Assembly: GCA_964507445.1 (NCBI GenBank)
Contig: CAZDQF010000005.1
Location: forward strand, 38,436-102,435
Reading direction: 5' to 3'
DNA: 64,000 bases
Source of the DNA: an uncultured Isosphaeraceae bacterium
GTDB lineage: Bacteria; Planctomycetota; GCA-002687715
The notes beneath the pieces are model-generated. The model was given only the letters and a program-made list of their open reading frames with translations. It ran no database searches and had not been told where the DNA came from. The position numbers were made by a program, and so were the translations under genes. Positions 4,226 to 38,847 of the stretch are shown here, one piece after another (within the stretch, counting starts at the first letter, position 1; the number at the start of each line of letters is the position of its first letter).

Positions 4226-4450
4226 TGTGCATCGAGATCACACCGGGGCCCCGGCAACGGGAGCTCTGGCACGTGGCAAAGGGAACTACGGGGAAGGAGT
4301 CCGAGACAGGTTCTGGCGTGGCTCGCGAGCCGACGCGCACCACTGGGGGGTGGACGCAGCGACAGCCGCGAGCGCAGGAGACTTCGGTCACCCGCGTCAG
4401 GTCATGACTCGGTCCGAGCGCCGCGCCGAAAGGTGCGGCGCTTTTTTTTG
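4226..4450 (+). ncRNA. candidate small RNA or 3'-UTR element
   Basis: GC-rich segment of about 225 nt, bounded upstream by an AT-rich island with TATACT at 4218-4223 and downstream by the intrinsic terminator at 4417-4450. No convincing ORF; the 108-aa ORF at 4227-4553 reads through the terminator and is Gly/Arg/Ala-rich. No match to tmRNA, SRP RNA or RNase P motifs. Confidence 0.2.
4417..4450 (+). terminator. rho-independent terminator
   Basis: AGCGCCGCGCC-GAAA-GGTGCGGCGCT forms an 11-bp GC-rich stem with one G-U pair and a GAAA tetraloop, followed by TTTTTTTT. The T-run is on the plus strand only. Confidence 0.6.
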
Positions 4451-4549
4451 GGGGTGGTCTTTCTTGATCTGGGCCGAAACCAGCCGAGACAATCGAAGCA
4501 AGCGCAGGCCGTTGGCCCGCACGTACCGGCAGGAGCCGGCAGGAGAAGC

Positions 4550-7300
4550 ATGAGCAGCCAGGGTTTCACATCGCAGGACGCCAAGGTCGATCAGGTCGAT
4601 GGTCCGGCCTGGCACCCAACGCTGCCTGCCCGCCTCGGCCGCTACCGGATCCTCAAGAAGCTGGGCGGCGGCGGCATGGGGGTCGTCCTCCTCGCCCGCG
4701 ACGATCAGCTGGACAGGGACGTGGCCATCAAGGTGGTCCGCCCGGATCAGGCGCTCCTGGATGAACCTCATCCTCGATTTCAGCGAGAGATCGACGCCGT
4801 CGCCCGGCTCCATCACCACGGGATCGCACCCATCCACGACGCGGGGTTCGACGCCGGGCTCTCCTGGTACGCCATGGAGTGGATCCCGGGGTGCACCCTG
4901 TCGGAGCTCGTGAAGGAACTGGGGGCGAGTGACCCCAGGACACTGACCGGTCTCGACGCCCATCGAGCCGTGGCCCAGCTCTCCGCAACCAAGCACCCTC
5001 CCGTGGTCCCGCAGGCGGAGCCGAACGAGCTCTTCGACGGCACATGGGCCACGTTCGCGTTCCGCGTCACCGAGCGCATCGCCGGCACCCTCGATCACGC
5101 CCACGCTCAGGGCACGCTTCATCGGGACGTGAAGCCATCCAACGTCATGATCACGCCCGACGGACGGGTCTTCCTGATCGACTTCGGGCTCGCCATTCAC
5201 GAAGAGCAGGAGACCATCACTCACACCGGCGTAGCGGTCGGATCGCTGCCTTACATGGCGCCCGAACAACTCCAGGGTCTGACCTCAGCCCTGGACGGGA
5301 GGACGGATATCTACGCCCTCGGGGTGACCCTCTATGAGCTCGCCACCCTTCGACAACCGTTCCGTTCGTCCAATGACGAGGCGACCCGCCGACGCATCAT
5401 CCATCAGGACATCCCGCGAGCGCGTGTCCTGAACCCGGACCTCAGCTGGGATCAGGAGACGGTCATCAGCGTGGCCATGGACCCGGTTCCCAGCCGCCGC
5501 TACCGGTCGACCGCCGCAATGGCCTCGGATCTCGCCAACGTCTGCGCCGGCCGGGCCGTGAACGCGCGACGGGCGGCCGCTCACGTCCGGTTGTCCCGCT
5601 GGATACGGATGCACCCCACCGCCACGACGGGTGTAGGCCTGGGCCTCATGACCATCGCAGCCCTGACCTGGGGCCTCGTGCGTGCCAAGGAAGACGCTGA
5701 CAGGATCTCCCGTGCCCTGACCGCCGCAGACAGCGCCCGGGTCGCCGCAGACAGCAGCCGCCTGCAGATGACGGAGCTCATCTCGAGCGAGTTTGAGTTC
5801 CTCAACTCAGGCGACACGGACGGCCGCATCGTGGACCTCGAGGGGATCTACGAGAGCCGGCGCCGGCGACTGGCGAGCCTCGAGCTGTCCCCGGCCGAGA
5901 CCGCCTTCTATCGTTACAACCTGGCCCGCATCGCCAACAGGCTCTCCCGCCATCGGGACGCTCGTGACGACGACGCGACGGCGCTGGCGATCTACCGCGA
6001 GCTCTTCGACGGCGATCACGAGATGATCGCGACCTCCCTCGACAAGCTGGCCAACGACTATCAGTTCCTCGATGACATCGACGCGGCGGAGGCCCTGTGT
6101 GAGGAGTCCCTCGCCATGCGCGCCAGGATGCACGGGGAGGACTCTCTCCCCTACGCTCGGAGCCTCTCCACCCGAGCCGGGATTCAACGCCGGCGCGGCG
6201 ACATCGATCAGGCACATCGGACCTACCAGAGCGTCCTGAAGGTGTATGAACGAGAGCTGGAAGCGGCGTCGTCATCCCGCCATCCCTTGAGCGATGCGCT
6301 GCTCATGAGCCTCAGAGAATCCGCAGGTGAGATCCACCACGGACTTGGGATAACGCTGCTCAGGTCTTCTGATCCTCGGGGCGCCCGGGAGCACTTCGAA
6401 GCAGCTCTGGCGCACTTCGCCAGGTCCCGGGGTGTCCCGGTGGATCAGGCTTCCTGTCAGTATCATCTGGCTATCTGCGCCCGCGTCACGGGCGAACTCG
6501 ACGCGGCCCGCGAGCACCTCGAACAAGCGGCGGAGATCCAACAACGATACCTCGGACCGGATGACATCCTGGCCCACCAGATTTGCAGTGAACGCGGCCA
6601 CGTGGAGTGGGCTGCGGGACGACGCGAAGACTCCGTCACCTTCCTGATGGACGCGGTAGACGGGTTCTCCCGATCGGAGATCGAAGACCGGTCCAAGGCC
6701 CCCGCCACGCGCGTCGTCCTCGCGAGCTACCTCATGAAGATGAACCGTGACGCCGACGCCATCGCGCAGCTGGAGGCGGCGGAGACGGAGGCCGCAGCCG
6801 TCAACGACCCGCTCATCGCAGGCAGCGTCCAGTGGGCGCTCGCGGACATCGCCGAGAAGCTGGGACGGGCCGAGGAGGCGATCCCGAGGAGACGGACCTA
6901 CATCAAGGCTCACGAGCAGTCCCTCGGACGCGACCATGCCCGCGTCATCACCCTCAGGCTGGTTCAGTGCCGCACCCTCGCCCGGTCAGGAGCCACCCAG
7001 GACAGTCGCCGTTGCCTGGAGGGAATCCTGGAGTGGCTGGCAGATCGAGAAGGCGCGCAGGCCCGTCTCGTCACCCGCTCCCTGGGTCCCCTCTACCTGG
7101 CAGACCTCTTCGAAGCGCTGATCGAAGCTGACGACTCCGAGGGCGCCATCAAACTGGCGGTCGAGGTGGCGACCCAGCGCTTCCGCGTTGAACAGCCCAA
7201 TCCGGATGAGCGCCTCGCCTACCTCAGCCGGCTGACCGACATCTTCACCGAAATGGGCGAGGCGCTGATCGCCCGCGAGATCCGCAAGCGCATGCAATGA
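4550..7300 (+). CDS. Ser/Thr protein kinase with C-terminal TPR-like repeat region
   Basis: ATG 4550 with an AGGAGA ribosome-binding site. Kinase motifs GGGGMGVV, AIKVV, HRDVKPSNVM, IDFGLA and APE, then a single transmembrane helix around residue 380 and about 550 aa of helical repeats. The ORF-track start 4433 lies inside the terminator. Confidence 0.85.
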   Translation: MSSQGFTSQDAKVDQVDGPAWHPTLPARLGRYRILKKLGGGGMGVVLLARDDQLDRDVAIKVVRPDQALLDEPHPRFQREIDAVARLHHHGIAPIHDAGFDAGLSWYAMEWIPGCTLSELVKELGASDPRTLTGLDAHRAVAQLSATKHPPVVPQAEPNELFDGTWATFAFRVTERIAGTLDHAHAQGTLHRDVKPSNVMITPDGRVFLIDFGLAIHEEQETITHTGVAVGSLPYMAPEQLQGLTSALDGRTDIYALGVTLYELATLRQPFRSSNDEATRRRIIHQDIPRARVLNPDLSWDQETVISVAMDPVPSRRYRSTAAMASDLANVCAGRAVNARRAAAHVRLSRWIRMHPTATTGVGLGLMTIAALTWGLVRAKEDADRISRALTAADSARVAADSSRLQMTELISSEFEFLNSGDTDGRIVDLEGIYESRRRRLASLELSPAETAFYRYNLARIANRLSRHRDARDDDATALAIYRELFDGDHEMIATSLDKLANDYQFLDDIDAAEALCEESLAMRARMHGEDSLPYARSLSTRAGIQRRRGDIDQAHRTYQSVLKVYERELEAASSSRHPLSDALLMSLRESAGEIHHGLGITLLRSSDPRGAREHFEAALAHFARSRGVPVDQASCQYHLAICARVTGELDAAREHLEQAAEIQQRYLGPDDILAHQICSERGHVEWAAGRREDSVTFLMDAVDGFSRSEIEDRSKAPATRVVLASYLMKMNRDADAIAQLEAAETEAAAVNDPLIAGSVQWALADIAEKLGRAEEAIPRRRTYIKAHEQSLGRDHARVITLRLVQCRTLARSGATQDSRRCLEGILEWLADREGAQARLVTRSLGPLYLADLFEALIEADDSEGAIKLAVEVATQRFRVEQPNPDERLAYLSRLTDIFTEMGEALIAREIRKRMQ

Positions 7301-10736: not shown

Positions 10737-10887
10737 GCAGTTCTCCTGGTTGGACCGTGGTTTCTCGCATCTGCCGCTCCGCTCGGGTCACGGGACAGCA
10801 ATAGCACATGGAGCGCCCCAACGGGAGGCCACCTGAGCAGCGTCACAAGCACCTCTACGCCGGGATGAAGGCCCCCGTCTGCGCCGT

Positions 10888-10901
10888 TAGGATGACCCCC
10901 C
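10888..10901 (+). promoter_or_regulatory. -10-like TAGGAT lying 8 nt upstream of the ATG of the giant flavoprotein gene
   Basis: TAGGAT at 10888-10893, then GACCCCCC, then ATG 10902. No Shine-Dalgarno sequence. Same architecture as at pepE, the PhoD-family gene, the HAD gene and the symporter gene. Confidence 0.3.
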
Positions 10902-13900
10902 ATGCCGCGGTCGAACACCAAGGTCCTGATCGTTGGAGGCGGAGCTGCGGGGATCACCGCGGCCATCGGCCTCGCCAAGCGAGACATCCCTGTGGTGGTG
11001 CTCGAGGGCGGCCTCTACGCCGGCGCCGAGAATTGGTCCGGCGCCGTCTACTTCTGTGAGAACCTCGTGCGGCCGGAGATTCTCGGAGAGGACGGCCTCG
11101 CCCAGACGCCCGTAGAGCGCCGCGTCGTCCAACGAGGCCTCCTCGCCTCCGACGGCGAGCTGGCCGTCGGCGCGTCCGTCAGATCCCCCGCCGCCTTCAA
11201 CCACTGCTACACCGTGCTGCGCCCGGTGTTCGACCACGACCTGGCCGAGAAGGCGCGGATTCACGGAGCCGAGATCCTCACCGGCACCACCGCGTTGGCG
11301 CTCCTCAGGGATGGCGACCGGGTCCGCGGGGTGCTCACGGACCGGGGCCCCATCTACGCAGATGTGGTGTTCCTCGCGGAGGGAGACGCCTCCAATCTGG
11401 TGACGCGGGAGGGGCTCGAGACCAAGAACCCTGGGGAGTCCGGGATCGTACGTCCCGAGTTTCTCCAAGGCATCAAGGAGGTGCTGCAGCTACCGGAAGG
11501 AGAGATCGAGAGGCGCTTCGGGGTTCAAGAAGGAGAGGGGGCCTGCTTCGAGATCCTCCTGCGAAATGGCACCGTGAAGGGCGCCACCGCGCCTCTCAAC
11601 GCTGGCGCGTTCCTCTACACCAACCGCGACAGCCTGAGCATCGGTCTCGTCGCACCCCTGCACAACCTCAAGCAGGTGGGCGTACGCCACAACCAGTTGA
11701 TGGAGTGGCTCAAGGGGATGCCCGCGCTCGAGGGGCTGCTGGACGGAGCCCGCCCGGTCTCTTTCGGAGCCAAGCTGATCCGAGGCGGCGGCTTCAAGGA
11801 GATGCCCCGGCTGGCCCTGGACGGGTGCGCCGTAGGAGGAGCAGCCACGGGCATCGGCCTGGACTTCCCCTGCCCCAACTACACCGGCCCCGCCACCTTC
11901 ATGGGGTGGGCGTTCTCGGAAGCGGTGGCCGACATTCTCGATGACGGCGGCGCGTTCACCCGCGAGGCCCTGGAGGCACGCTACGTCGAGACCGTGCAGT
12001 CCAGCTCGTACCTCACCGACGTGCACAGCCTGAAGGACTGGCCCGCCTTCGTCTCCGAAACCCGACACTTCTTCGACACCCAGGTGGACGTCGCCACGGC
12101 CATGGCGGACGCCGCCACGAACCCCGAACGCTCCGGGCACCTGGCCGTCGCGCGCGCCGCCCTCGACGCGACGTCCGGTCATCGCAAGGCGCTCATGGCC
12201 GAGCTCAATCGAGCCGGCGCCGCCCTCGGTTTGACCCGGGGACTCGGCAAGGACATCCTCCTCGCGGTCCCGTGGTGGGTCATCAACTGCGTCATCGGCT
12301 GGTTCCCTCGCAGGACCTCCACGGACGCAACCCTCGTCCCCCACCTGCTCCACGGCGCGGGCGTGACCCGCGAGAGCGCACCCTGGCTGATCCGGTACGT
12401 CCGCTGGATCATGGCCCCGGGTCTGGCGGAAGCTCTCCACCACCTGTATCGCAACGACGGTGCCGCCCTCCCCGAGAAGCTCCGGGCCAGCCGTCGAGCC
12501 CTGCTCAACCGGATCTCCCTGGTTGATCTGGTGCTGGCACCGCTGCTCCTCCTGGTCCTGACGCTCCTCAACCTCGTGGCCAGGCGACGGGAGACGGACC
12601 GGCGGACGGCCCTCGATCAGGTCTCCCCGGAAGTGGATCACGACTCCAAGCTGGCGTGGCTCACCTACCGCAGCGACGAACACACTCACATCCGTTTCCA
12701 CGCCGCCTACGACGAGCATGGACTGCCGGACGACGCCAGCTCCTCCCTCTTCAACGTGTGCCCCGCGTGGGTGTACAAGCAAGAGGACAGCCCCGCGGGG
12801 GACGGGTCCGTAGCGGTGCTCCACGAGAACTGCATCCGCTGCGAGACCTGCTGGCGGGCCGATGATCGACGGGTGGACTGGGGACGCACGCGGGGTCAAC
12901 GCTTGGTCTTCGAGTCCTACACCAGCGCCGACGCCTGGCTCAGGGAGTCCCGGGAGGCAGCGAACCTGGCCCGCGCCGCGCGGGCAGGAACGGCTCAGCC
13001 CATCCCGCCCATCGTGGATCCGGATCCGGTCGCCCTCGACGCCGCCGATCGTGCGGACGCATCCGCAGCCGGCACGCGGATCAGCCGTCACCTTCGGAGC
13101 TTCCGCTCCCTGATGCGACACATGCCGTCGGTCCTCCTCGGGTCGGACCGCAAGCTCCTCGATGCTCTCGGCAGAGAGGTCATCCGAGGAGTGGAGGACC
13201 TCGGCGAAGCGCTGGGCCGACACGACGCCGCGGACCTGAAGTCCCGTCGCGACGCGCTGGCGGGCTGGGTGCGACTCGCCACCGACCACCTGGACACGGA
13301 GCGCTTCTTCCACTTCGAAGCGGATCTGGGCGTGCTGGAGAGCCACCACATGGTGGAGGTTCGTGCGCTCACGGGTGTAGGCCTGTCTCGGCCGCCGCGG
13401 CGCGCCAGCTTCGGCATGGGCGCTCGTCGCGCGGCGCTCCGCGCCCTCCTGGAGCAACGGTTGGATCGCGACACCGTGGCCGCCTGTGAGGCCAGCATGC
13501 AACCGACGGACGACGCTCGCCGAGCCTTGCTGGATGTGGTCGCGGCGCTCTGCGACCCCGATTCCGGTGAACCCGTCGCCCCCGGATCCGTCGCCCGAGA
13601 CGCCGCGTTGGAGGAGATGGCCCGTTTGTCACCCTCCCTGGCTGTGCTCACGGCCGGTCATCTTGCGGTCTGTGACCTGGTCCATCGAGCGGAGACCCCC
13701 GCCCGTCCCGTCCCCGCCCTGTCGGAGGTGCGCGACGATCTGCGCACCGGACGGGTCATCGGAGGCATCCTCCGCGGGGAGTTCTGGCTCAACGACGACG
13801 CCGTGTCCGGACAGAGCGAGGCCTGCCTCCTCGGGGGGCTGGGCGTGCTCGCCCTGCCCACGGGGGATGGCTTCTGCCTGCTCGTTCCGGGCGACGACGG

Positions 13901-16900
13901 CGTGACCACACGCATCGTCGGGGGCCTCGGACTGCGCGGAGCGGGCCCCGGGACCGTAACCCTGGACGCGGTCGTGCCGCGCGCGTTCTTCTCCGGAGAA
14001 CCAGCCGGTGACTGGCTCCGTGAGCGCGCCTGTTGGGACCTGGTCGCCGTCGCGCGGGGCATGAGCGCCTACCTCCTGGAACGAGCCCTCGATCACGCCG
14101 CCTCCCGCGTCCAGTTCCCCGGCATGTTCAAGGACCACCGCGGCCGAGACTCCATCGCCAAGTTCGGCGCCGTGCAGGAGATGCTCGGCGTCATGACCGA
14201 GAACCAGGAGGTCCTGGAAGCGCTTCGTGACCGCGCGGGCATGGGCCGTCCCGCCGCTGCCCTCGCCATCAACCTGCTGGGACCCTCGCCCCGATCCACC
14301 GCCTACCTGGCCGGACAGGTCCTGGGGGGGACCGCCTACTCGGAAGAGGACCCGGTGTGTCGCTTCTTCCGCGACGCCGCCACGCTCACCCGCCTGCCGA
14401 TCCACCTGGCCCAGATCTGGGGCGAGGTGGGAGACACGGCCCTCGGCATGGGGCCGGAGGGGCCGGACCTGCCTGACCTGGACATGGAGCCACGCCCCCT
14501 GGCAGCCCCGGACGAAGCCTCCCGTCTGGTGGCGACGCCGATTCGGGACGTGGACGACGCCGTGCGAGCGTTCACCGCCGCGGTGGGTGAGCTTGAGGAG
14601 GCCGATCGCGCCGCCTTGAGGCGGGAAGTGGGGCGCCTCACCCTCGACGTCGCCGCCGTACGGGCGCTGGCGTCCCGCGTCGAAGCCCGGCTGGAAGACG
14701 GCGCCCGAGGCGGCATCTCCAGCGCCGCTCTCGAAGGGCTCTGCGAACGGACCGCCGCACGCGCGCGGCGACTGACCCTACGCCTGGGTGACGTCCCGGC
14801 GCTCTGCGAGCTTGGCCGACAGCTCCTCGACAACCACACCGTCAGCACGCCGCCCAACGGAGACGGGGCCACCTACGGTGACTACCTGAGCAGCGACGGG
14901 TCGTTCACGTCCGGCGACCTGCTGATGAAGCCGTCGCAGAACGACCTCGTCCTCACGCCCGAGCTGATCCACGCGGACCCGGAGCTCGCCGCGTTGAAGC
15001 AGCAGATCGACGACACCTGGAAGTCGCGCTACCGCGACCGCCGTCCGGGGGAAGAGCCCTACACGCGCTACGTGGAGAGGCTCCATCACGTCCCCTTGAC
15101 CGACATCCGCACCCTCCTGGACGAGGGCTACTTCCGGCTCATCATCCCCACGGCCCACGGGGGCGAGGGCGCCAAGAAGGTCGCCTACTACCTCGCCACC
15201 ACCGCCATGATGCGCCACGGGGACCCGACCCAGGCCATCATCGTCATGGGGTCCACGTCCATCGGCACGACACCGCTCCTCCTCGGCCTGGAGCAGGACC
15301 TGCCGGAGGCCCGCCGCACGCTGACCTCACTCATGGAGAGACGGGACGAGGTGGAGGCGGCCGCCGCCGGCGACGGTCAGGCACGCAAGGCGTTGCGGTC
15401 CCTCCTCGGCAACAAGGCGGTGCGCGGCCTCCTCCCCCGCGACCTCCGGGGTTGGGAGGCCAAGGTGCAGGAGGAGCTGGACTCGCTCCCCGGCCGGGAG
15501 GCGGCCCACGCGTTCTTCCTGCGGCTCATCGCCTCGGGCAGCATCTCCGCCTTCGCCCTCACCGAACCAAGCGCGGGCTCCGACACCGCCCGCGTCCGCA
15601 CCAAGGCGGAGCTCTGCCATGTTCCCGTGGAGGCCGATCCCCGGGGCTTCTGGACCTTCCGACCTGAAGGCGCTCCGGAGGACACGGTCCGGAACCTCTT
15701 CACCTACGACAGCCTCGAGTTCGCCGACGACGGGATCACCTTCGTCGGCGCGGACGGCCAGCGCACGCCGCTCGACGTCCGCGACTTCGATCACCAAGGC
15801 GACGTCCGCAGCTCGGCGGAGAGCAAGCACCGATACGTGGTCCTGGACGGCGAGCGGATCGACGTGCACGACATCGGCAGGGTGACGGAGCAGGACGGAG
15901 CCACGGTCTACCCCTACTACCGGGTCAACGGCGCCAAGATGTGGATCACCAACGGTTCCACCGCCGGCGTCATGATCCTGTACGCCAGGACCGGACGCGG
16001 ACCCACAGGGTTCATGCTCGACGCCCACGCCGAGGGTCTCGTCATCGGCAAGGACGAAGAGAAGATGGGGCAGCGTGGCTCGGCCACCAACGAGCTGGCC
16101 CTGAGCGACGTGCGCATCCCACGGGATCAGGTCATCGGCATCGAAGGCCGCGGCCAGGAGAACGCCCTCGAGACGCTGAACGTGGGCAGGGCCGGACTGG
16201 CGGTGAGCTGCACCGGGCTGATCCAGGAGGTGGTGGAGGACCTGCGCGCGCACTTCTCCGATGACGACGCGGAGCCCACACCGGAGCAGCTCCTCGAACT
16301 CGGGAAGATCGCCCTGGACGCGGTGAACGCGGAGTCCCTCGGGTGGCAACTGGCGGGGCGCTTCGACCACGGCGGCACGGTCTCCGTGCGGATGGAGTCG
16401 GCCCTGGCCAAGGCCTCCAACACGGAGGCCTATCACCGGGTCCTCACCCGCGCCGAGCGCGTCCTCAGTCCACGATTCGTCCTCGACGACCACGAGTTGG
16501 AGAAGCGGCGCCGGGACGCGCGGGTCCTCACCATCTACGAGGGGACCAGCGAGATCCAGCGCTTCCTCATGCTGAGAGACCTGGTGGACGGCCTGAGGGA
16601 AGATCAGGGGCAAGGCGCTCCGGAGACGGAGCTGTGGGGTCCGTTCTCCGCAGCGCGAGGCGACCTCTTCAAGCATGTGGGCGCCGTTCAGCGAGGGCTC
16701 GGCCCCCGCGCCTGGCAGCAGGCGGGGCTTCAGCCGGTGGTCTTCCCGCTTGTGGAGGGGCTCATGGCGCTCGGTGGCTACACCGCCACCGTCCAGAGGC
16801 TGCAGGTCGCCGAACGGCTGCTGGACGAGAACGACCCGGCGGCGGCGGAGCTGCTCGGGTTCATTCGACGCGCCGCCCAGCTCAGCGGAGAGGACCTGGA

Positions 16901-18941
16901 GCGGCGCCGCGTCAGCGGCTACGCACGGCACCAGGTCTCCATGGAGCGCCTGCGTGAAGGCACCGACGTCCACGCTCGCACCCTCGCTGACCGAGCCCTC
17001 CTGCGCCACGCCGATCCACCTTCGCCGGTCGAGACCATGCCGACCTCCAGCATCACCAGGCCAGTCCGCGTGGCGCTGATCATCGACCCGAGGCCGGTGG
17101 TGGCGCCGACGCCAAGGCTCCATGGCGGGACGTTGCGAGAGCACGCGGCGGAGTTGAGCGACCTGGACCGCGGGATACTGAGCCAACTCCGACGCCTCCG
17201 GGCCACCGCGGACGCGGCTGTCGACGTCACCGTCGTCGGCGTCGGACGGATCGCCACCATGGACGTGCTCCGGGAGACCCTGGCCCTGGGAGCTGACCGG
17301 GCCTTCCTGTTGAACACGGGCACCCGCAACCTGTTCGCGACCGACGTGGCCGGCGCCATCGCAGAGTTGGTGAGAGCCAACGAGGAGCTCGGTGACGCCG
17401 CTTTCGATGTCGTCCTGGGAGCCGCGGATCGCGGGTCCCTGCTGCTCCCCCTGGCCCGAAGGCTGGAGCTGGTGCCCTTCGAAGGCAGCCGCTGCTTCGG
17501 CCTCACGGCGACGACCGATCAACTGGAGTTCCAGGTGAGACCATCCCGGGGTGAGGACATTCAACTCGCCGGGCCCTGTCTCCTGACCATCGAGGACCCC
17601 AGGACGGCGGCGGAGTTCACCTGGAGCATGGAGGGGTGGGGCGCCGCCCAGGCCGTGGACGTGACCGTCGTGGACTTCATCCCCGAGGACGCTCCGTCCA
17701 TCAGGCTCGAGGCCACCATCTCATCGGCGTCGTCGGAGGTCCCGGCGGAAGTCGGCCCCATGGACGTGACCGACGCCGCGGCGCACTTCGCGGAAGCCAC
17801 GGGACTGGACGGGGCACCGGAGACCCGAGGCTTCTACGAGGGGGAGATCACCCGGATGCCGCCGGGCATGTTCTTCCACGGGCTGGGCGCCGTGGCCGTG
17901 GCGGAGGCGGACCAGGAAGGCGGCGTGGCCACCAACATCGCCGGCCCCGCGAACGCGGCGTCCGCCGCCGCGGCGGGGGGTCCTCTCGGCGCGTTGCTCA
18001 TCGTCCCGTCCCAGGATCCGGATGTCGTGAGGAGGGCCGCCGGTGAGACCCTCGCCGTCGCGCCGGGCAGCCGGGTCGGTGTGGTCGCCTGGGAAGGGCT
18101 CATGACCCGTTCCGTCATCACGAGGGCGCAGATCATGGAAGGGCTGCTGCGCGAACACCCCACCCCGGCGTTCTTCGCCACCCGGCTGAGGTCCGCGGCC
18201 TTGCTCTCCGGCGAGGGGCGCGCCCTGGCCGGCGAGGACATCGCGCTGGTGGACGGGGTGGATCGCGTCGGGGCATCAGGCAAGCGCTGCACCCTCTCCG
18301 GGCTCCGCTACGACCGGAAGATCCGGTACCACGCCGACAGCGACGGAGCGTCACCGCACGTGGTGGTGGCCTCGACGGTGGAGACCTCTGAGGCCGAAGC
18401 CGACCCCGCACCAGGGGACGGCGCGGTCATCCTGCTGGATGAGCTACCGCTCCCCAACCAGGAGGACGTCCTCGGCAAGGCGGTGGTGGACGCCGAGCAG
18501 CAGCTCGGTGTCTCCCTCGAGGACGCAGAGTTCATCATCGATGTGGGCTACGGCGTCGGCAGCCGGGACGGCATCGAGGAGGTCATCGAACCGCTCCAGC
18601 AAGCCCTTATCGATCTCGGCGTGAAGGGCGTCACCATCGGGGCCACCCGCAAGGTGACCCAGGACCTCGGCATCCTCCCGGATTCTCATCAGATCGGGCA
18701 GACCGGGGTGTCCGTCGACCCCCGCGTGATGCTCTGTGTCGGCGTCTCCGGCGCTCCGCAACATCTGGAGTACATCGGCGACCGGGCGGTCATCTTCGCC
18801 TTCAACAAGGACGCGGACGCGCCGCTCATGACCCTGAACGGTAGCAGACCGAAGCCGGTGGTGTATCCCATCGTCGGCGACCTGTTCCAACAGGTCCCCC
18901 TGTTCGTCCGGGCGCTGGAAGAGCGGTCGCGGGGTCAGTAG
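10902..18941 (+). CDS. giant multi-domain flavoprotein: FixC/ETF-QO-like FAD oxidoreductase, 2 TM helices, FixX-like ferredoxin, partial ACAD-like module, complete acyl-CoA dehydrogenase, EtfB-like and EtfA-like domains in one polypeptide
   Basis: Single uninterrupted 2,679-aa reading frame. Domains in order:
- nt 10902-12220: GxGxxG VLIVGGGAAGITAA and FixC / ETF-ubiquinone-oxidoreductase-like FAD domain.
- nt 12255-12305 and 12516-12580: hydrophobic helices.
- nt 12751-12856: CPAW...ENCIRCETCW ferredoxin-like segment.
- nt about 13500-14400: ACAD C-terminal-like module (RVQFPGMF...FGAVQEM...GGTAYSEEDPVCRFFRDA).
- nt 14950-16600: full ACAD (FALTEPSAGSD, YRVNGAKMWITNG, IYEGTSEIQR).
- nt 17035-17800: EtfB-like.
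- nt 17800-18941: EtfA-like, with ILPDSHQIGQTGVSVDPRVMLCVGVSGAPQHLEYIGDRAVIFAFNKDADAPLM as the ETF-alpha FAD-domain signature. Confidence 0.8.
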   Translation: MPRSNTKVLIVGGGAAGITAAIGLAKRDIPVVVLEGGLYAGAENWSGAVYFCENLVRPEILGEDGLAQTPVERRVVQRGLLASDGELAVGASVRSPAAFNHCYTVLRPVFDHDLAEKARIHGAEILTGTTALALLRDGDRVRGVLTDRGPIYADVVFLAEGDASNLVTREGLETKNPGESGIVRPEFLQGIKEVLQLPEGEIERRFGVQEGEGACFEILLRNGTVKGATAPLNAGAFLYTNRDSLSIGLVAPLHNLKQVGVRHNQLMEWLKGMPALEGLLDGARPVSFGAKLIRGGGFKEMPRLALDGCAVGGAATGIGLDFPCPNYTGPATFMGWAFSEAVADILDDGGAFTREALEARYVETVQSSSYLTDVHSLKDWPAFVSETRHFFDTQVDVATAMADAATNPERSGHLAVARAALDATSGHRKALMAELNRAGAALGLTRGLGKDILLAVPWWVINCVIGWFPRRTSTDATLVPHLLHGAGVTRESAPWLIRYVRWIMAPGLAEALHHLYRNDGAALPEKLRASRRALLNRISLVDLVLAPLLLLVLTLLNLVARRRETDRRTALDQVSPEVDHDSKLAWLTYRSDEHTHIRFHAAYDEHGLPDDASSSLFNVCPAWVYKQEDSPAGDGSVAVLHENCIRCETCWRADDRRVDWGRTRGQRLVFESYTSADAWLRESREAANLARAARAGTAQPIPPIVDPDPVALDAADRADASAAGTRISRHLRSFRSLMRHMPSVLLGSDRKLLDALGREVIRGVEDLGEALGRHDAADLKSRRDALAGWVRLATDHLDTERFFHFEADLGVLESHHMVEVRALTGVGLSRPPRRASFGMGARRAALRALLEQRLDRDTVAACEASMQPTDDARRALLDVVAALCDPDSGEPVAPGSVARDAALEEMARLSPSLAVLTAGHLAVCDLVHRAETPARPVPALSEVRDDLRTGRVIGGILRGEFWLNDDAVSGQSEACLLGGLGVLALPTGDGFCLLVPGDDGVTTRIVGGLGLRGAGPGTVTLDAVVPRAFFSGEPAGDWLRERACWDLVAVARGMSAYLLERALDHAASRVQFPGMFKDHRGRDSIAKFGAVQEMLGVMTENQEVLEALRDRAGMGRPAAALAINLLGPSPRSTAYLAGQVLGGTAYSEEDPVCRFFRDAATLTRLPIHLAQIWGEVGDTALGMGPEGPDLPDLDMEPRPLAAPDEASRLVATPIRDVDDAVRAFTAAVGELEEADRAALRREVGRLTLDVAAVRALASRVEARLEDGARGGISSAALEGLCERTAARARRLTLRLGDVPALCELGRQLLDNHTVSTPPNGDGATYGDYLSSDGSFTSGDLLMKPSQNDLVLTPELIHADPELAALKQQIDDTWKSRYRDRRPGEEPYTRYVERLHHVPLTDIRTLLDEGYFRLIIPTAHGGEGAKKVAYYLATTAMMRHGDPTQAIIVMGSTSIGTTPLLLGLEQDLPEARRTLTSLMERRDEVEAAAAGDGQARKALRSLLGNKAVRGLLPRDLRGWEAKVQEELDSLPGREAAHAFFLRLIASGSISAFALTEPSAGSDTARVRTKAELCHVPVEADPRGFWTFRPEGAPEDTVRNLFTYDSLEFADDGITFVGADGQRTPLDVRDFDHQGDVRSSAESKHRYVVLDGERIDVHDIGRVTEQDGATVYPYYRVNGAKMWITNGSTAGVMILYARTGRGPTGFMLDAHAEGLVIGKDEEKMGQRGSATNELALSDVRIPRDQVIGIEGRGQENALETLNVGRAGLAVSCTGLIQEVVEDLRAHFSDDDAEPTPEQLLELGKIALDAVNAESLGWQLAGRFDHGGTVSVRMESALAKASNTEAYHRVLTRAERVLSPRFVLDDHELEKRRRDARVLTIYEGTSEIQRFLMLRDLVDGLREDQGQGAPETELWGPFSAARGDLFKHVGAVQRGLGPRAWQQAGLQPVVFPLVEGLMALGGYTATVQRLQVAERLLDENDPAAAELLGFIRRAAQLSGEDLERRRVSGYARHQVSMERLREGTDVHARTLADRALLRHADPPSPVETMPTSSITRPVRVALIIDPRPVVAPTPRLHGGTLREHAAELSDLDRGILSQLRRLRATADAAVDVTVVGVGRIATMDVLRETLALGADRAFLLNTGTRNLFATDVAGAIAELVRANEELGDAAFDVVLGAADRGSLLLPLARRLELVPFEGSRCFGLTATTDQLEFQVRPSRGEDIQLAGPCLLTIEDPRTAAEFTWSMEGWGAAQAVDVTVVDFIPEDAPSIRLEATISSASSEVPAEVGPMDVTDAAAHFAEATGLDGAPETRGFYEGEITRMPPGMFFHGLGAVAVAEADQEGGVATNIAGPANAASAAAAGGPLGALLIVPSQDPDVVRRAAGETLAVAPGSRVGVVAWEGLMTRSVITRAQIMEGLLREHPTPAFFATRLRSAALLSGEGRALAGEDIALVDGVDRVGASGKRCTLSGLRYDRKIRYHADSDGASPHVVVASTVETSEAEADPAPGDGAVILLDELPLPNQEDVLGKAVVDAEQQLGVSLEDAEFIIDVGYGVGSRDGIEEVIEPLQQALIDLGVKGVTIGATRKVTQDLGILPDSHQIGQTGVSVDPRVMLCVGVSGAPQHLEYIGDRAVIFAFNKDADAPLMTLNGSRPKPVVYPIVGDLFQQVPLFVRALEERSRGQ

Positions 18942-20473
18942 TTCAGCGCGCTCAGCGGCACACGGAGACGGTGGACACGATCTCCGGCGATGTTGATGAC
19001 CTCGTAGCTGACGCCGGGGTCTTCTCCGCCGGGCTCGAACCGCACGAATCCGAAAGAAGGCGTGGCGTTGTAGGAGAAGAGCGCCCTCTTCATCACCGCG
19101 TGCTTGTGGACGTTGGTCAGCCGGGAGGAGTTGAACTCGTAGATGGGGTATCCACCCGGGCGTTGGTTCAGCCAGGCGTCAGACCGGTGACGGTCAGCGG
19201 AGAGTTGCACCACGCCGGTGATCCTGTGCTCTGAGAGGAAGCGGTAGATCCCTGCCCGTTCCTGGGGATGCCCGTCCCACGTGTCCTTGCTCTTGCCCTT
19301 CGTCCCCGTCGCCCAGGGCACCGGGGAACAGATCACCTTGAACACCGCCTTCGAGTCCTTGAGTCCCTGCTTCAGCCAGCGCAGCTGATGGGGTCCGAGC
19401 ATGGAGCTGGAGCCGTCGCCCTTGGGCCTCTCACGGTACGCCCGTCCGTCGAGCATGAAGAAGTCCACGGCGCCCCAGGAGAAGCTGTACCAGCAACCCG
19501 GCCGCTCCACGCCGCCGCCGTACCCCGGGTTGGCCCAATTCTCGACGAACACATCCCAGACGTCCCGCTTCCACGGTGGGGTGTCCACCGCGGGGCCGCC
19601 CTTGCAGTCGTTGGTGCCGAAGTCGTGATCATCCCAGATGGAGAACGTCGGTACGCGGGCGGTGAGGGCGCGGTAAGGCGGGCTGGCCTGACGACGGTGA
19701 TAGCAGTACCGCTGAACGTCGGGGTGCTTGGGGTGATCGATGTAGACATTGTCCCCCAGGAGCAGCAGCAGGTCCGGGGAGGTCTTGGCGATGGTCGACC
19801 ACATGTGCTCATGCCGTGGCGTGAACCCGGCGCCGCCGCCGAAGGCGAGGGTGAACGCCCCCTTCGAACCGAGGGTCGGAGCCGTTCGGAACGCCAGCAC
19901 AGCAGCGGTCGGCTCTTCTCCGCTGTCAGGCCGCAGATCCACGGTCCCTTCGTAGGCCGTGTCCGACTCCAGGCCCGTCATGTGCAACACCGCGGTGCAA
20001 TCGGAGGCTGGCTCGGTGCGCGCCTCGACCCGGCGCCCCGCGACCGAGAGCACCACCGTGGCGGGGCTGGTGGTCCGGACCCACACCCGCGCATCGTGAG
20101 GACCCACGGCACCCACCATGGGGCCCATGGCGATGCGGGGCGTCTCGCAGAGCTCGGGGTAGCGATCTCGAAGCGGACGCAGCCAATGCTGGAAGGCCAC
20201 GGCCAGTCGCCCCTCGGGGAACCCGAGACGACGCACCCGTTCCACCGCCGCCGCGGCCGCGGCCGGATTCTGCTGCGCCGCCTCGGCGATGGCGACCATG
20301 AACCAGTCTTCAGGGTCATCATCGTTGGCCGCGATACGGCCGCGGAGGGTCTTGAGGGCCACCGCGGGCTTGCCGTCGACGATCTGACGCAACGCGTCAC
20401 GGTGGATCTTCTTGTACTGGCCCTGAGCCGCGAGGCACCCGACCATGGTCAGGAAGATGATGCAGGTTCGCAT
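18935..20473 (-). CDS. PhoD-family alkaline phosphatase / metallophosphatase, secreted
   Basis: IWDDHDFGTND and GDNVYIDH are PhoD-family motifs. Internal ATG 20473 gives the signal peptide MRTCIIFLTMVGCLAAQ; the ORF-track start 20728 is over-extended. The 3' end overlaps the giant gene by 7 nt. Confidence 0.8.
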   Translation of the reverse strand: MRTCIIFLTMVGCLAAQGQYKKIHRDALRQIVDGKPAVALKTLRGRIAANDDDPEDWFMVAIAEAAQQNPAAAAAAVERVRRLGFPEGRLAVAFQHWLRPLRDRYPELCETPRIAMGPMVGAVGPHDARVWVRTTSPATVVLSVAGRRVEARTEPASDCTAVLHMTGLESDTAYEGTVDLRPDSGEEPTAAVLAFRTAPTLGSKGAFTLAFGGGAGFTPRHEHMWSTIAKTSPDLLLLLGDNVYIDHPKHPDVQRYCYHRRQASPPYRALTARVPTFSIWDDHDFGTNDCKGGPAVDTPPWKRDVWDVFVENWANPGYGGGVERPGCWYSFSWGAVDFFMLDGRAYRERPKGDGSSSMLGPHQLRWLKQGLKDSKAVFKVICSPVPWATGTKGKSKDTWDGHPQERAGIYRFLSEHRITGVVQLSADRHRSDAWLNQRPGGYPIYEFNSSRLTNVHKHAVMKRALFSYNATPSFGFVRFEPGGEDPGVSYEVINIAGDRVHRLRVPLSALNY

Positions 20474-20488
20474 GGCCCGGTATCCTAC
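20474..20488 (-). promoter_or_regulatory. -10-like TAGGAT lying 8 nt upstream of the ATG of the PhoD-family gene
   Basis: Sense-strand sequence is GTAGGATACCGGGCC followed by ATG. It shares an identical 16-nt core with the pepE junction. Confidence 0.3.
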
Positions 20489-20492
20489 AGCC

Positions 20493-20843
20493 ATGAACGG
20501 ACTGAGCGCTGAGCAGGTAGCAGAGCTGCGGGCGGACCTGGCGACGCTGCACCAGGAGTTGGAGGCGCTCCTCACCATGGCCGACGACGGCGCCAGGCCC
20601 ATCGAGCTGGAGCAACCCATCGGCCGACTGTCTCGAATGGACGCCATGCAACAGCGAGAGATGGCCATGGCGAACCACGCCGCACACCAACGTCGCCTCA
20701 GTCTGGTGGACGAGGCCGTGGAGGCCATGGAGGACGGGAGCTACGGCCTCTGCGCCAACTGCGACCGGCCCATCGCGTTCAGCCGTCTCAAGGCGCTGCC
20801 GGAGACGATCTCCTGCCTGCCGTGCCAGGAGCGCCTCGAGTAG
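20493..20843 (+). CDS. DksA/TraR-family C4-type zinc-finger protein
   Basis: CANCDRPI...CLPCQE C4 zinc finger at the C-terminus after a coiled-coil region. Start ATG 20493 (MNGLSAEQ); the alternative ATG 20472 overlaps the start of the PhoD-family gene. Confidence 0.7.
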   Translation: MNGLSAEQVAELRADLATLHQELEALLTMADDGARPIELEQPIGRLSRMDAMQQREMAMANHAAHQRRLSLVDEAVEAMEDGSYGLCANCDRPIAFSRLKALPETISCLPCQERLE

Positions 20844-37971: not shown

Positions 37972-38847
37972 TCAACCGCCCTTCACCGCCATGCTCACCG
38001 AGTACAGGGAGGTCCGGGCCGTGATGAAGAGCGTCTTGCGCTCCTTACCTCCGAAACAGACGTTCGCCGGTCCCTCTGGCAGGTCGATGGTCTCGATGTG
38101 GGCGCCCTTCTTGTCGTGGATGAACACCTTCCCGCGGGTGGTCAGGTAGAGGTTCCCCCGTTCATCCAGGGTCATGCCATCGGAGCCGGAACCCGGGATG
38201 AACACGGTCCGGTCGTTGAGGCGCCCACCGGACCCGATGCTGTACCGCATGATGTTCTTCCCCCCGGCGTCCGCCACGTAGAGGGTCTTGCCGTCACGGG
38301 TCCCCACGATGCCGTTGGGCTTCACCAGGTCATCGATGACCCGGCGCAGGGAAGAACGGTCCGGCGGCAACCAGTAGACATGGAAGCCGCCTTGTTGAAG
38401 GTCCGACTGCTTGCCGTACCGGGGGTCCGTGAACCAGATCCCCTGGTCCGGGTCGATCCAGAGATCGTTGGGGCTGTTGAGCGGCTTGTTGTCATGGGCC
38501 GCCACGAGCACCGTGCGCTCGCCGTCCCCGGCGAGACGACTGAGGCGGCGGGCTCCCCCCTCGCAGGCGTGGAGGCGCCAGCGAGCGTCGAAGTACAGGC
38601 CGTTGGCGGCGCCCGAGTTCTCGAGGAAGGTGGAGAGCTTCCCGTCCACGGACCACCGGTGGATACGGTTGTTGGGGATGTCCGTGAAGTAGACGTTGCC
38701 GCGCTGGTCCGCCGCGGGACCTTCCGTGAAACGGAACCCGGTGGCCAGGCGCCGCACCTTGGCTCCTTCGGCGACGAGGGAATCCTGACCCCATAACGGA
38801 CCGATCAGGGACAGGAGAACGACCAGAGCGGGGATGTTGTGCCACAT
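37972..38847 (-). CDS. SMP-30 / gluconolactonase / LRE-family beta-propeller protein, secreted
   Basis: Signal peptide MWHNIPALVVLLSLIGPLWGQ. EGPAADQRGNVYFTD, NGLYFDA, PNDL and PNGI repeats are typical of SMP-30/regucalcin lactonases. TATACT lies 8 nt upstream of the ATG. Confidence 0.75.
   Translation of the reverse strand: MWHNIPALVVLLSLIGPLWGQDSLVAEGAKVRRLATGFRFTEGPAADQRGNVYFTDIPNNRIHRWSVDGKLSTFLENSGAANGLYFDARWRLHACEGGARRLSRLAGDGERTVLVAAHDNKPLNSPNDLWIDPDQGIWFTDPRYGKQSDLQQGGFHVYWLPPDRSSLRRVIDDLVKPNGIVGTRDGKTLYVADAGGKNIMRYSIGSGGRLNDRTVFIPGSGSDGMTLDERGNLYLTTRGKVFIHDKKGAHIETIDLPEGPANVCFGGKERKTLFITARTSLYSVSMAVKGG

Follow-up and report, generated by a model that had tools for sequence, protein, structure and literature searches.

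A conserved single-chain protein joining FixC, FixX, acyl-CoA dehydrogenase and electron transfer flavoprotein modules, probably an acyl-CoA:quinone oxidoreductase, in Planctomycetota and other phyla

A 64,000-nt stretch of DNA from an uncultured Isosphaeraceae bacterium (Planctomycetota; assembly GCA_964507445.1, contig CAZDQF010000005.1, forward-strand positions 38,436 to 102,435; hereafter, the window) contains a giant gene at 10902..18941 (+). Its 2,679-aa product joins in one chain a FixC-type flavoprotein, a membrane anchor, a FixX-type ferredoxin, a linker, two acyl-CoA dehydrogenase (ACAD) folds, of which the first (ACAD') is degenerate, and the EtfB and EtfA modules of an electron transfer flavoprotein (ETF). 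These components are normally five or six separate proteins. The identity of the modules, their order (FixC-anchor-FixX-linker-ACAD'-ACAD-EtfB-EtfA), the conserved motifs for catalysis and cofactor binding and the loss of complementary features in the two ACAD folds are all directly observed. We consider that the product is probably a self-contained, membrane-associated acyl-CoA:quinone oxidoreductase, the quinone being most likely menaquinone.

The gene opens with an ATG and runs in a single frame for 2,679 codons (8,040 nt). A first-pass annotation of the window, made from its letters alone, had described it as one uninterrupted frame and not as a row of adjacent genes, and this description holds. 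At the GC content of the gene (69.7%), the chance of meeting 2,679 stop-free codons is ~2e-23. GC at codon positions 1, 2 and 3 (0.73, 0.49 and 0.87) is even over nine 300-codon bins, indicating that one frame is coding from end to end. Antisense open reading frames (ORFs), the longest of up to 745 aa, also lie within the gene and are a chance product of GC-rich coding DNA. The first-pass annotation had found no Shine-Dalgarno sequence, which was too strong a statement: the TAGGAT ahead of the gene includes AGGA, its end 9 nt upstream of the ATG, and this is a plausible weak ribosome-binding site.

Since the components are normally encoded by separate genes, one may suspect a misassembly, a frameshift or a recently fused pseudogene, with the real fixC, fixX, acd, etfB and etfA standing apart. 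Beyond this prior suspicion we found nothing that speaks for such an artefact, and several observations speak against it. Gene calls on 21 contigs, assembled independently from several samples and in some cases 0.2-1 Mb long, give exactly the same 2,679-aa product, and three gene copies compared at the DNA level show 0 differences over 8,040 nt; hence no hidden frameshift or stop splits the frame. Being free of differences, these copies gave no signal on purifying selection. Furthermore, in 60 of the homologous loci that we fetched, the whole array is one unbroken ORF of >2,300 codons with the same colinear arrangement, and the loci include closed chromosomes (CP070722, CP070815 and OZ244217) and contigs >4 Mb. 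Residues for catalysis and cofactor binding do not vary between phyla, and the codon-position GC is, as stated, even along the gene. Identical copies and conserved single ORFs together effectively refute both an assembly artefact and a set of adjacent genes, to which we attach a negligible probability.

The fusion is not peculiar to the window genome and defines a widespread family. A database search with the window protein returned 417 relatives, the 120 best of which share one Pfam set and span 2,470-2,886 aa; when a member from Gemmataceae served as the seed, a further protein search gave 491 matches at E<=1e-100, and the 120 listed are all full length. In a scan of one genome per species, relatives were found encoded in 239 species-representative genomes, the colinear homologues measuring 2,470-2,970 aa. 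Orthologous fusions in Planctomycetota and related phyla, a search for which had been proposed with the first-pass annotation, therefore exist in at least five phyla: Planctomycetota (including Gemmatales and Planctomycetia), Gemmatimonadota, Acidobacteriota, Nitrospirota/Leptospirillia and Verrucomicrobiota. No cultured carrier appears among the rows listed by the Gemmataceae-seeded search and the species-representative scan, where every named source is a metagenome-assembled genome (MAG). The closest relative among the matches listed is a protein of a Planctomycetota MAG, with 63% identity. In public databases, members of the family are labelled 'acyl-CoA dehydrogenase family protein', 'FAD-binding protein' or 'ETF-quinone oxidoreductase'. 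A search with the family-specific middle region of the protein (phmmer, 1.84 billion representative proteins) yielded 88 matches, in which the region occupies the same position in all long proteins; short matches look like contig fragments, and ordinary ACADs come in only at the foot of the list. No unfused or partial architecture, and no stand-alone family of the degenerate ACAD fold, was evident in this exhaustive search. The five-component fusion proposed from the sequence is thus real, colinear and conserved, and it gains a sixth component, the degenerate ACAD module.

Two kinds of database entry deserve comment. Full-length members occur on two contigs (L013 and L060) from MAGs labelled 'uncultured Alcaligenaceae', and the EtfB loop alignment described below groups both with members of the Gemmatales/Planctomycetia type, which suggests a binning or taxonomy error and not a proteobacterial carrier. 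The Planctomycetota MAG CPC9 has a full-length copy (L008, NYSS01000005.1; 63% identity to the window protein) and a second match (L005, NYSS01000034.1) that covers aa 1-922 at 65% identity and reaches the contig end; the latter could be a second paralogue or reflect strain heterogeneity in the bin.

To assign the modules we mapped conservation along the window protein in an alignment of 33 sequences (the window protein and 32 diverse homologues; A1), and compared profiles and sub-profiles of the family with solved structures in the PDB. AlphaFold2 models were built from shallow alignments of 15-18 sequences, and the EtfB loop and anchor helices were compared over 59 family members. Invariance is given below for the 33 sequences unless stated otherwise. 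Family profiles were needed, as a single-segment Pfam scan of the window protein left EtfB undetected and FixX below threshold.

The N-terminal module (aa 1-404; 10902..12113, +) is a flavoprotein of the type of FixC and of ETF-quinone oxidoreductase (ETF-QO), as first proposed. Its GxGxxG motif reads VGGGAAG (aa 10-17) and, with the core residues, is invariant over members from several phyla. It matches the NCBIfam model for FixC (PRK10157) with E=3e-38, though far under the equivalog cut-off, and the family profile matches the FixC of Thermotoga (7koe_C) with E=2e-49. An AlphaFold2 model of aa 8-700 has a mean predicted local distance difference test score (pLDDT) of 75.6 and a predicted template modelling score (pTM) of 0.78, with values of about 80-95 pLDDT in the FixC part. 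Searched with Foldseek, it finds 7koe_C as the clear best structure (E=3e-29, TM-score 0.85 normalised to the target, root-mean-square deviation 3.2 Å), with ETF-QO and geranylgeranyl reductases ranking below it. The closest structural relative of the module is therefore the quinone-reducing FixC of Thermotoga EtfABCX, and from this homology and the adjoining hydrophobic helices we infer that it may bind and reduce quinone.

The FixC module is followed by a helical region with the membrane anchor (aa 405-570; 12114..12611, +). Two hydrophobic helices had been predicted here. One of them (aa 538-556; nt 12513-12569, +) is indeed strongly hydrophobic, with a Kyte-Doolittle value of 2.65, and most of the 59 members have a helix of >=1.6 in the same place; the other, a Trp-rich helix at aa 453-469 (nt 12258-12308, +), reaches only about 1.56. 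A conserved YRND motif lies between them, around aa 516-519. In the AlphaFold2 model, aa 320-555 form confident helices packed on FixC. As FixC and FixX must share one side of the membrane, the helices between them most likely form a hairpin or a monotopic anchor.

Next comes a FixX-like ferredoxin module (aa 580-680; 12639..12941, +), whose assignment is weak but specific. The sole PDB matches of its profile (A4) are FixX 7koe_D (E=0.003, residues 3-67) and residues 527-560 of ETF-QO 2gmh (E=0.009). Pfam Fer4_ETF_QO (PF05187), recorded for many homologues, gives E=0.004 in the window protein and 17.8 bits, against a gathering score of 24 bits. Four Cys residues are invariant in alignments of both 33 and 20 sequences and are the predicted cluster ligands: Cys620 (nt 12759-12761), which with P621 belongs to CPAxVY, and Cys644 (12831-12833), Cys647 (12840-12842) and Cys650 (12849-12851), all on the + strand and within ENCIxCETCW. 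The FixX of Thermotoga bears an additional Cys-rich stretch ahead of its CPADVY motif, which has no counterpart here. One [4Fe-4S] cluster is therefore expected, as in ETF-QO, and not the two of the Thermotoga type.

Between FixX and the ACAD modules lies a helical linker (aa 690-890; 12969..13571, +) of moderate conservation, which bears the motif RFFHFEADLGVLESHHM, conserved in the family as RFF(H/W)xEAD...L..HH. It had no Pfam or PDB match, and is the sole part of the protein without an assignable fold family.

The linker leads into two ACAD modules, the first of which had been taken for a partial one. It is related to ACADs, yet not partial: ACAD' (aa about 895-1320; 13584..14861, +) has a full but degenerate fold. 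The best match of its profile (A3) is the very-long-chain ACAD (VLCAD) 8ca1_B (E=7e-12), with 2dvl and 1buc also matched, and AlphaFold2 gives it an ACAD-like helix/strand/helix layout with pLDDT mostly >85. It lacks the catalytic Glu of the YEGT motif. It invariantly keeps RVQFPG (R1069, Q1071) and GQVLGGTAYSEED (G1138-D1150), and its motifs R1069-V-Q-F-P-G and G1138-Q-V-x-G-G-T-A-Y-S-E align with RTQFG and QIMGGMGF of VLCAD.

The second module (aa 1330-1895; 14889..16586, +) is the complete ACAD that had been recognised from its motifs: FALTEPSAGSD, NGAKMWITNG and RDARVLTIYEGTSEIQ. All three Pfam models, PF02771, PF02770 and PF00441 (Acyl-CoA_dh_N, M and 1), match aa 1386-1892 above their gathering scores (E=1e-5, 5e-15 and 9e-25), its profile (A5) matches CarC 6fah_C with E=1e-59 and Bcd 5ol2_C with E=4e-58, Foldseek also finds ACADs, and the window protein matches NCBIfam FadE of the Bacillus type with E=1e-35. 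TEPxAGSD, KMWITN and YEGT-E-Q are invariant over the 33 members. The last of these, I1878-Y-E1880-G-T-x-E-x-Q, aligns with IYEGTSQVQ of CarC, so that Glu1880 (nt 16539-16541, +), at the Glu position of medium-chain ACAD and Bcd, is the predicted catalytic base. This module is devoid of the RxQFG and QxxGGxGY motifs, with a gap opposite ERKQFGKRI and 'rllglagq' opposite QIHGGYGY of CarC, and contains two family-specific insertions, at aa about 1470-1530 and about 1580-1665. After its core come a helical extension and linker (aa 1896-2043; 16587..17030, +), where the profile match to 2z1q_A and 3owa_A runs on to chain residues 500-528 (window aa 1896-2000). In sequence this segment resembles the C-terminal extension of long VLCAD/FadE-type ACADs. 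A weak third stretch of the ACAD' profile also matches the extra C-terminal helical domain of VLCAD.

ACAD' and ACAD have hence decayed in complementary ways by the measure of their motifs, like the beta and alpha subunits of heteromeric ACADs. In ACADs, the FAD (flavin adenine dinucleotide) sits at the dimer interface, and in the alpha2beta2 enzymes of mycobacteria the alpha subunit provides the catalytic Glu and binds both substrate and isoalloxazine, and beta makes contact with the ADP-ribose of FAD (PMC11153573). The window protein likewise has two diverged folds of which one retains the catalytic base, and it differs from these enzymes in that both halves lie in one ORF. The motif split and its match to the alpha2beta2 division of labour lead us to infer that ACAD' and ACAD form a fused pseudo-dimer of alpha/beta type with one active site. 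An AlphaFold2 model of aa 885-1905 (1,021 residues; pLDDT 82.3, pTM 0.84) shows two ACAD-like helix/strand/helix units, and with Foldseek, which works on single chains, this tandem matches single ACAD chains with TM-scores of 0.74-0.84.

The likeness to the Mycobacterium tuberculosis enzymes ChsE4-ChsE5 (FadE26-27) and ChsE1-ChsE2 (FadE28-29), in which two diverged folds make one active site with the same split of motifs (PMC11153573), is one of motif distribution. In the window protein, by contrast, the halves are fused with the beta-like one first, both are long and VLCAD/FadE-like, and they stand within a larger redox chain. VLCAD, ACAD9 and long FadE-type ACADs (2uxw, 8ca1, 2z1q and 3owa) share the extra C-terminal helical domain, into which the profile matches of both window copies extend; unlike the window protein, these form homodimers, have two active sites and rely on an ETF that diffuses as a separate protein.

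The ETF part opens with an EtfB-like module (aa 2044-2260; 17031..17681, +), a correct call that could be seen only with a family profile. Profile A2 matches ten EtfB chains, among them CarD 6fah_B (E=4e-23), Acidaminococcus EtfB 4kpu_B (2e-22) and human 1efv_B (2e-13); PF01012 matches 9 of 11 family members and leaves the EtfB copy of the window unmatched. The nucleotide-binding loop, which we take to be the site of AMP in canonical ETFs and of the bifurcating FAD in ETFs that bifurcate, is deleted in the window: where CarD has AGRQAIDGDTAQVGSQIAQRL, the window protein has LGAADRGSLLLPLARRL, and the gap of the family in the CarD alignment falls at the loop GRQAIDGDTAQVG. Neither the GxQxIDxDxxQxG loop nor the VKxVxD strand is found; the window loop reads LGAADRG---SLLLPLARRL, and the strand ALIIDPRP takes the place of VKxVxD. 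Among the 59 members, the loss is graded: '...VLLK' and 'DTxQG' persist in Acidobacteriota and some Planctomycetia, in Gemmatimonadota and Gemmatales the loop is scrambled or degenerate, and in Verrucomicrobiota and the clade of the window it is deleted.

The chain ends with an EtfA-like module (aa 2300-2679; 17799..18938, +), supported by PF00766 (E=9e-17) and by a profile that matches CarE 6fah_A with E=9e-27 and spans the full length of CarE, 5ol2_A and FixB 7koe_B. The canonical signature of the FAD site, on which the module had been recognised, lies in FAD-binding domain II (aa about 2520-2672; nt 18459-18917, +), where RK, QIGQTG, SGAPQH and GDLF are conserved: R2583, K2584, Q2597, G2599, Q2600, G2602, S2616-H2621 and D2660 are invariant or nearly so. 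Domain I (aa 2300-2520), in contrast, is poorly conserved, with no invariant or near-invariant column from aa 2190 to 2535. With EtfA, every module listed by the first-pass annotation has found backing in a profile or structure comparison of the translated ORF.

The state of the ETF part bears on whether the protein could be a flavin-based bifurcating or confurcating machine like FixABCX or Bcd-EtfAB, with NADH reacting at a second FAD in EtfB and a ferredoxin or flavodoxin as third partner. The closest solved relatives all come from bifurcating complexes (7koe, 6fah, 5ol2 and 4kpu), and a bifurcating fused EtfB-EtfA exists in Sulfolobus (PMC12042025). This similarity is not discriminating, however, because non-bifurcating EtfB chains (1o94_C and 1efp_B) score about 4e-19 against A2, nearly level with the bifurcating ones. 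The phosphate-binding loop for AMP or FAD is deleted in the clade of the window, with VKxVxD turned into IIDPRP, and the site varies freely across the family; domain I of EtfA, part of the bifurcating-FAD pocket, has no invariant or near-invariant column; and FixX has one set of Cys residues, not two. A conserved second FAD site with an NADH site, the mark of bifurcating (group 2) ETFs, is accordingly not apparent from the sequence. With the EtfB loop variable or deleted and domain I of EtfA devoid of invariant columns, a second, bifurcating flavin does not appear, on sequence grounds, as a conserved feature of the family. Repeated loss would not be expected of a bifurcating flavin that is essential, which makes it very unlikely that the window protein bifurcates. 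Bifurcation is less excluded in the Acidobacteriota and some Planctomycetia members that keep a DTxQG-type loop; overall, we give it little credence.

Coming back to an acyl-CoA:quinone oxidoreductase, the protein would carry out the dehydrogenation step of beta-oxidation-type metabolism with the complete electron relay in one chain. An acyl-CoA would be converted to the enoyl-CoA at the active ACAD, with Glu1880 as the base, reducing the ACAD FAD, whose adenosine-diphosphate end would be held by the upstream ACAD', the two modules pairing within the chain as a pseudo-dimer that has one active site. Electrons would then pass singly from this flavin to the FAD in domain II of EtfA, which would rest on a base made of EtfB and the N-terminal domain of EtfA, a base predicted to have no nucleotide site of its own in the clade of the window. 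From domain II they would travel to the [4Fe-4S] cluster of FixX, on to the FAD of FixC and finally to quinone at the membrane surface, where the hydrophobic helices between FixC and FixX would anchor the protein. Such a chain should contain three FAD and a single [4Fe-4S] cluster. This path with its direction, the choice of quinone as acceptor and the predicted cofactors are drawn by analogy with homologous complexes: in the EtfABCX of Thermotoga (Feng et al., PNAS 2021; 7koe), electrons reportedly leave the ET-FAD for the FixX clusters, from which they reach menaquinone by way of the FixC FAD. Residues along the proposed path are invariant over the 33 members (the FixC core, the four Cys, the ACAD motifs and RK, Q-GQ-G and SGAPQH of EtfA). 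The first-pass annotation had left the end of the chain between quinone and ferredoxin; quinone is now favoured, whereas ferredoxin and bifurcation are disfavoured by the EtfB site deleted in the clade of the window and by the lack of an invariant residue in domain I of EtfA.

The same relay could also run in reverse, as a (mena)quinol:enoyl-CoA reductase in which quinol reduces FixC and FixX, then the flavin of EtfA and finally an enoyl-CoA at the ACAD, serving as an electron sink or for biosynthetic saturation. The best relatives of ACAD, EtfB and EtfA are subunits that work reductively (CarC, CarD and CarE, and Bcd-EtfAB), and menaquinol (about -74 mV) could reduce enoyl-CoA (about -10 mV), the phyla that host the fusion being presumably menaquinone users. 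But likeness to CarCDE and Bcd does not fix a direction, as oxidative short-chain ACADs score almost equally; no fermentative or biosynthetic genes adjoin the gene in the window or in three homologue loci; and many carriers belong to lineages that we take to be aerobic heterotrophs, as they are generally regarded. We hold the reductive direction to be unlikely, if less so than bifurcation.

Several points weigh against the oxidative, quinone-reducing function that we prefer. By textbook potentials, acyl-CoA oxidation with menaquinone is slightly endergonic under standard conditions, so that the oxidative direction is no more than probable, and no beta-oxidation genes adjoin the gene in the window or in the three homologue loci. 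FixX is assigned on weak scores (E=0.003-0.009) in a part of the AlphaFold2 model that is unreliable (pLDDT <50). The geometry of the pseudo-dimer is seen only as pTM, secondary structure and single-chain fold matches; and the proposed function does not account for the two large insertions of the ACAD and the linker at aa 690-890. Members that keep the DTxQG loop of EtfB could bind AMP or a second FAD. Lastly, the function of all family members is a prediction from sequence and modelled structure.

Compared with known systems, the window protein combines features that are otherwise found apart. It shares with FixABCX/EtfABCX of Thermotoga maritima (7koe) the FixC fold, the FixX-like CPAxVY...CxxCxxC segment, a membrane association (here predicted) and the EtfB and EtfA modules, and with ETF-QO (2gmh) a FAD domain followed by a Fe-S domain with a single cluster. 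It departs from both in having all parts in one chain, ACAD included, and in the two hydrophobic helices inserted between FixC and FixX; the additional Cys ahead of the CPA motif set Thermotoga FixX apart, and the EtfB site lost in the clade of the window makes NADH bifurcation of the 7koe kind unlikely. Bcd-EtfAB of Clostridioides difficile (5ol2) and CarCDE of Acetobacterium woodii (6fah) provide the best sequence matches (ACAD about 1e-59, EtfB 4e-23, EtfA 9e-27), and the order ACAD-EtfB-EtfA in the protein is the usual bcd-etfB-etfA gene order. Those complexes are multi-subunit, soluble and bifurcating, with homo-oligomeric ACADs, whereas the window protein is one chain with an attached quinone reductase, a degenerate ACAD partner and no conserved bifurcating-FAD site. 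The monomeric EtfB-EtfA fusion of Sulfolobus acidocaldarius, SaETF, also has EtfB followed by EtfA in one polypeptide, but it stands by itself at about 600 aa, with two FADs and bifurcating signatures, its ACAD and FixCX/ETF-QO partners being encoded by separate neighbouring genes (PMC12042025); the window protein is without the EtfB nucleotide loop and has the partners in the same chain.

The family of each module is known, as are the EtfB-EtfA fusion, heteromeric ACADs with one active site and the FixABCX, Bcd-EtfAB and CarCDE complexes. Our literature search, which was made outside most subscription journals, found only the Sulfolobus EtfB-EtfA fusion and nothing on the present architecture, in keeping with the first impression that the arrangement had not been described. 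Provisionally, then, we found no description of a quinone reductase, Fe-S domain, ACAD pair and ETF in one polypeptide, of a fused ACAD'/ACAD, or of a graded loss of the EtfB site.

The surroundings of the gene are unremarkable. Upstream lies a divergent gene for a GH3 glycosidase (- strand), with a 165-nt intergenic region (10737-10901), and downstream a convergent gene for a PhoD-like phosphatase (18935..20728, -); further neighbours are unrelated. The stop codon of the giant gene (18939-18941) overlaps the 3' end of the PhoD-like ORF by 7 nt (18935-18941), so the two convergent genes have no intergenic room for a terminator. Other assemblies give the PhoD gene only 512 aa, against 597 aa for the ORF in the window, the difference lying at the 5' end. 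The giant gene appears to be monocistronic. Three distant homologues, one in a closed Gemmatimonadota genome, one on a Verrucomicrobia-type contig and one on a contig of 4.3 Mb, have no neighbours in common with the gene in the window, so that context offers neither an operon nor a clue to the substrate; a solitary gene is consistent with a unit that can do without dedicated partner genes. Elsewhere, an unrelated gene at 4433-7297 (+) encodes a 955-aa protein in which a Ser/Thr protein kinase is joined to a long array of TPR repeats (Pkinase E=2e-35, TPR_12 E=6e-33). No tRNA or tmRNA genes, and no Rfam families at gathering score, were found across the 64-kb window (1-64000).

We tentatively propose, with slightly less than even confidence, that the family is a single-chain 'beta-oxidation respiratory module'. 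An ETF head tethered between the ACAD pseudo-dimer and the FixCX-type reductase would replace the diffusible ETF in several uncultured, probably menaquinone-dependent phyla, with electrons from acyl-CoA reaching quinone within one polypeptide, and the graded loss of the EtfB site would reflect an ancestor of bifurcating type turned into a structural scaffold. Complexes of ACAD with ETF and of ETF with its quinone reductase are transient and hard to trap, and the shuttling of the ETF flavin domain has mostly been deduced from separate structures. A natural protein of ~290 kDa, in which donor, shuttle and acceptor stand at a fixed 1:1:1 ratio, would be a target for cryo-electron microscopy of the whole path, including the docking of ETF on an acceptor of the FixCX/ETF-QO type. 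The series of kept, scrambled and deleted EtfB nucleotide sites would help to ask what separates bifurcating from canonical ETFs, and the ACAD pair would offer a fused example of the heteromeric, one-active-site principle beyond actinobacterial steroid catabolism. Hundreds of generically labelled MAG proteins could receive one consistent annotation, and this route may escape metabolic reconstructions that search these phyla for etfAB or etf-QO as separate genes.

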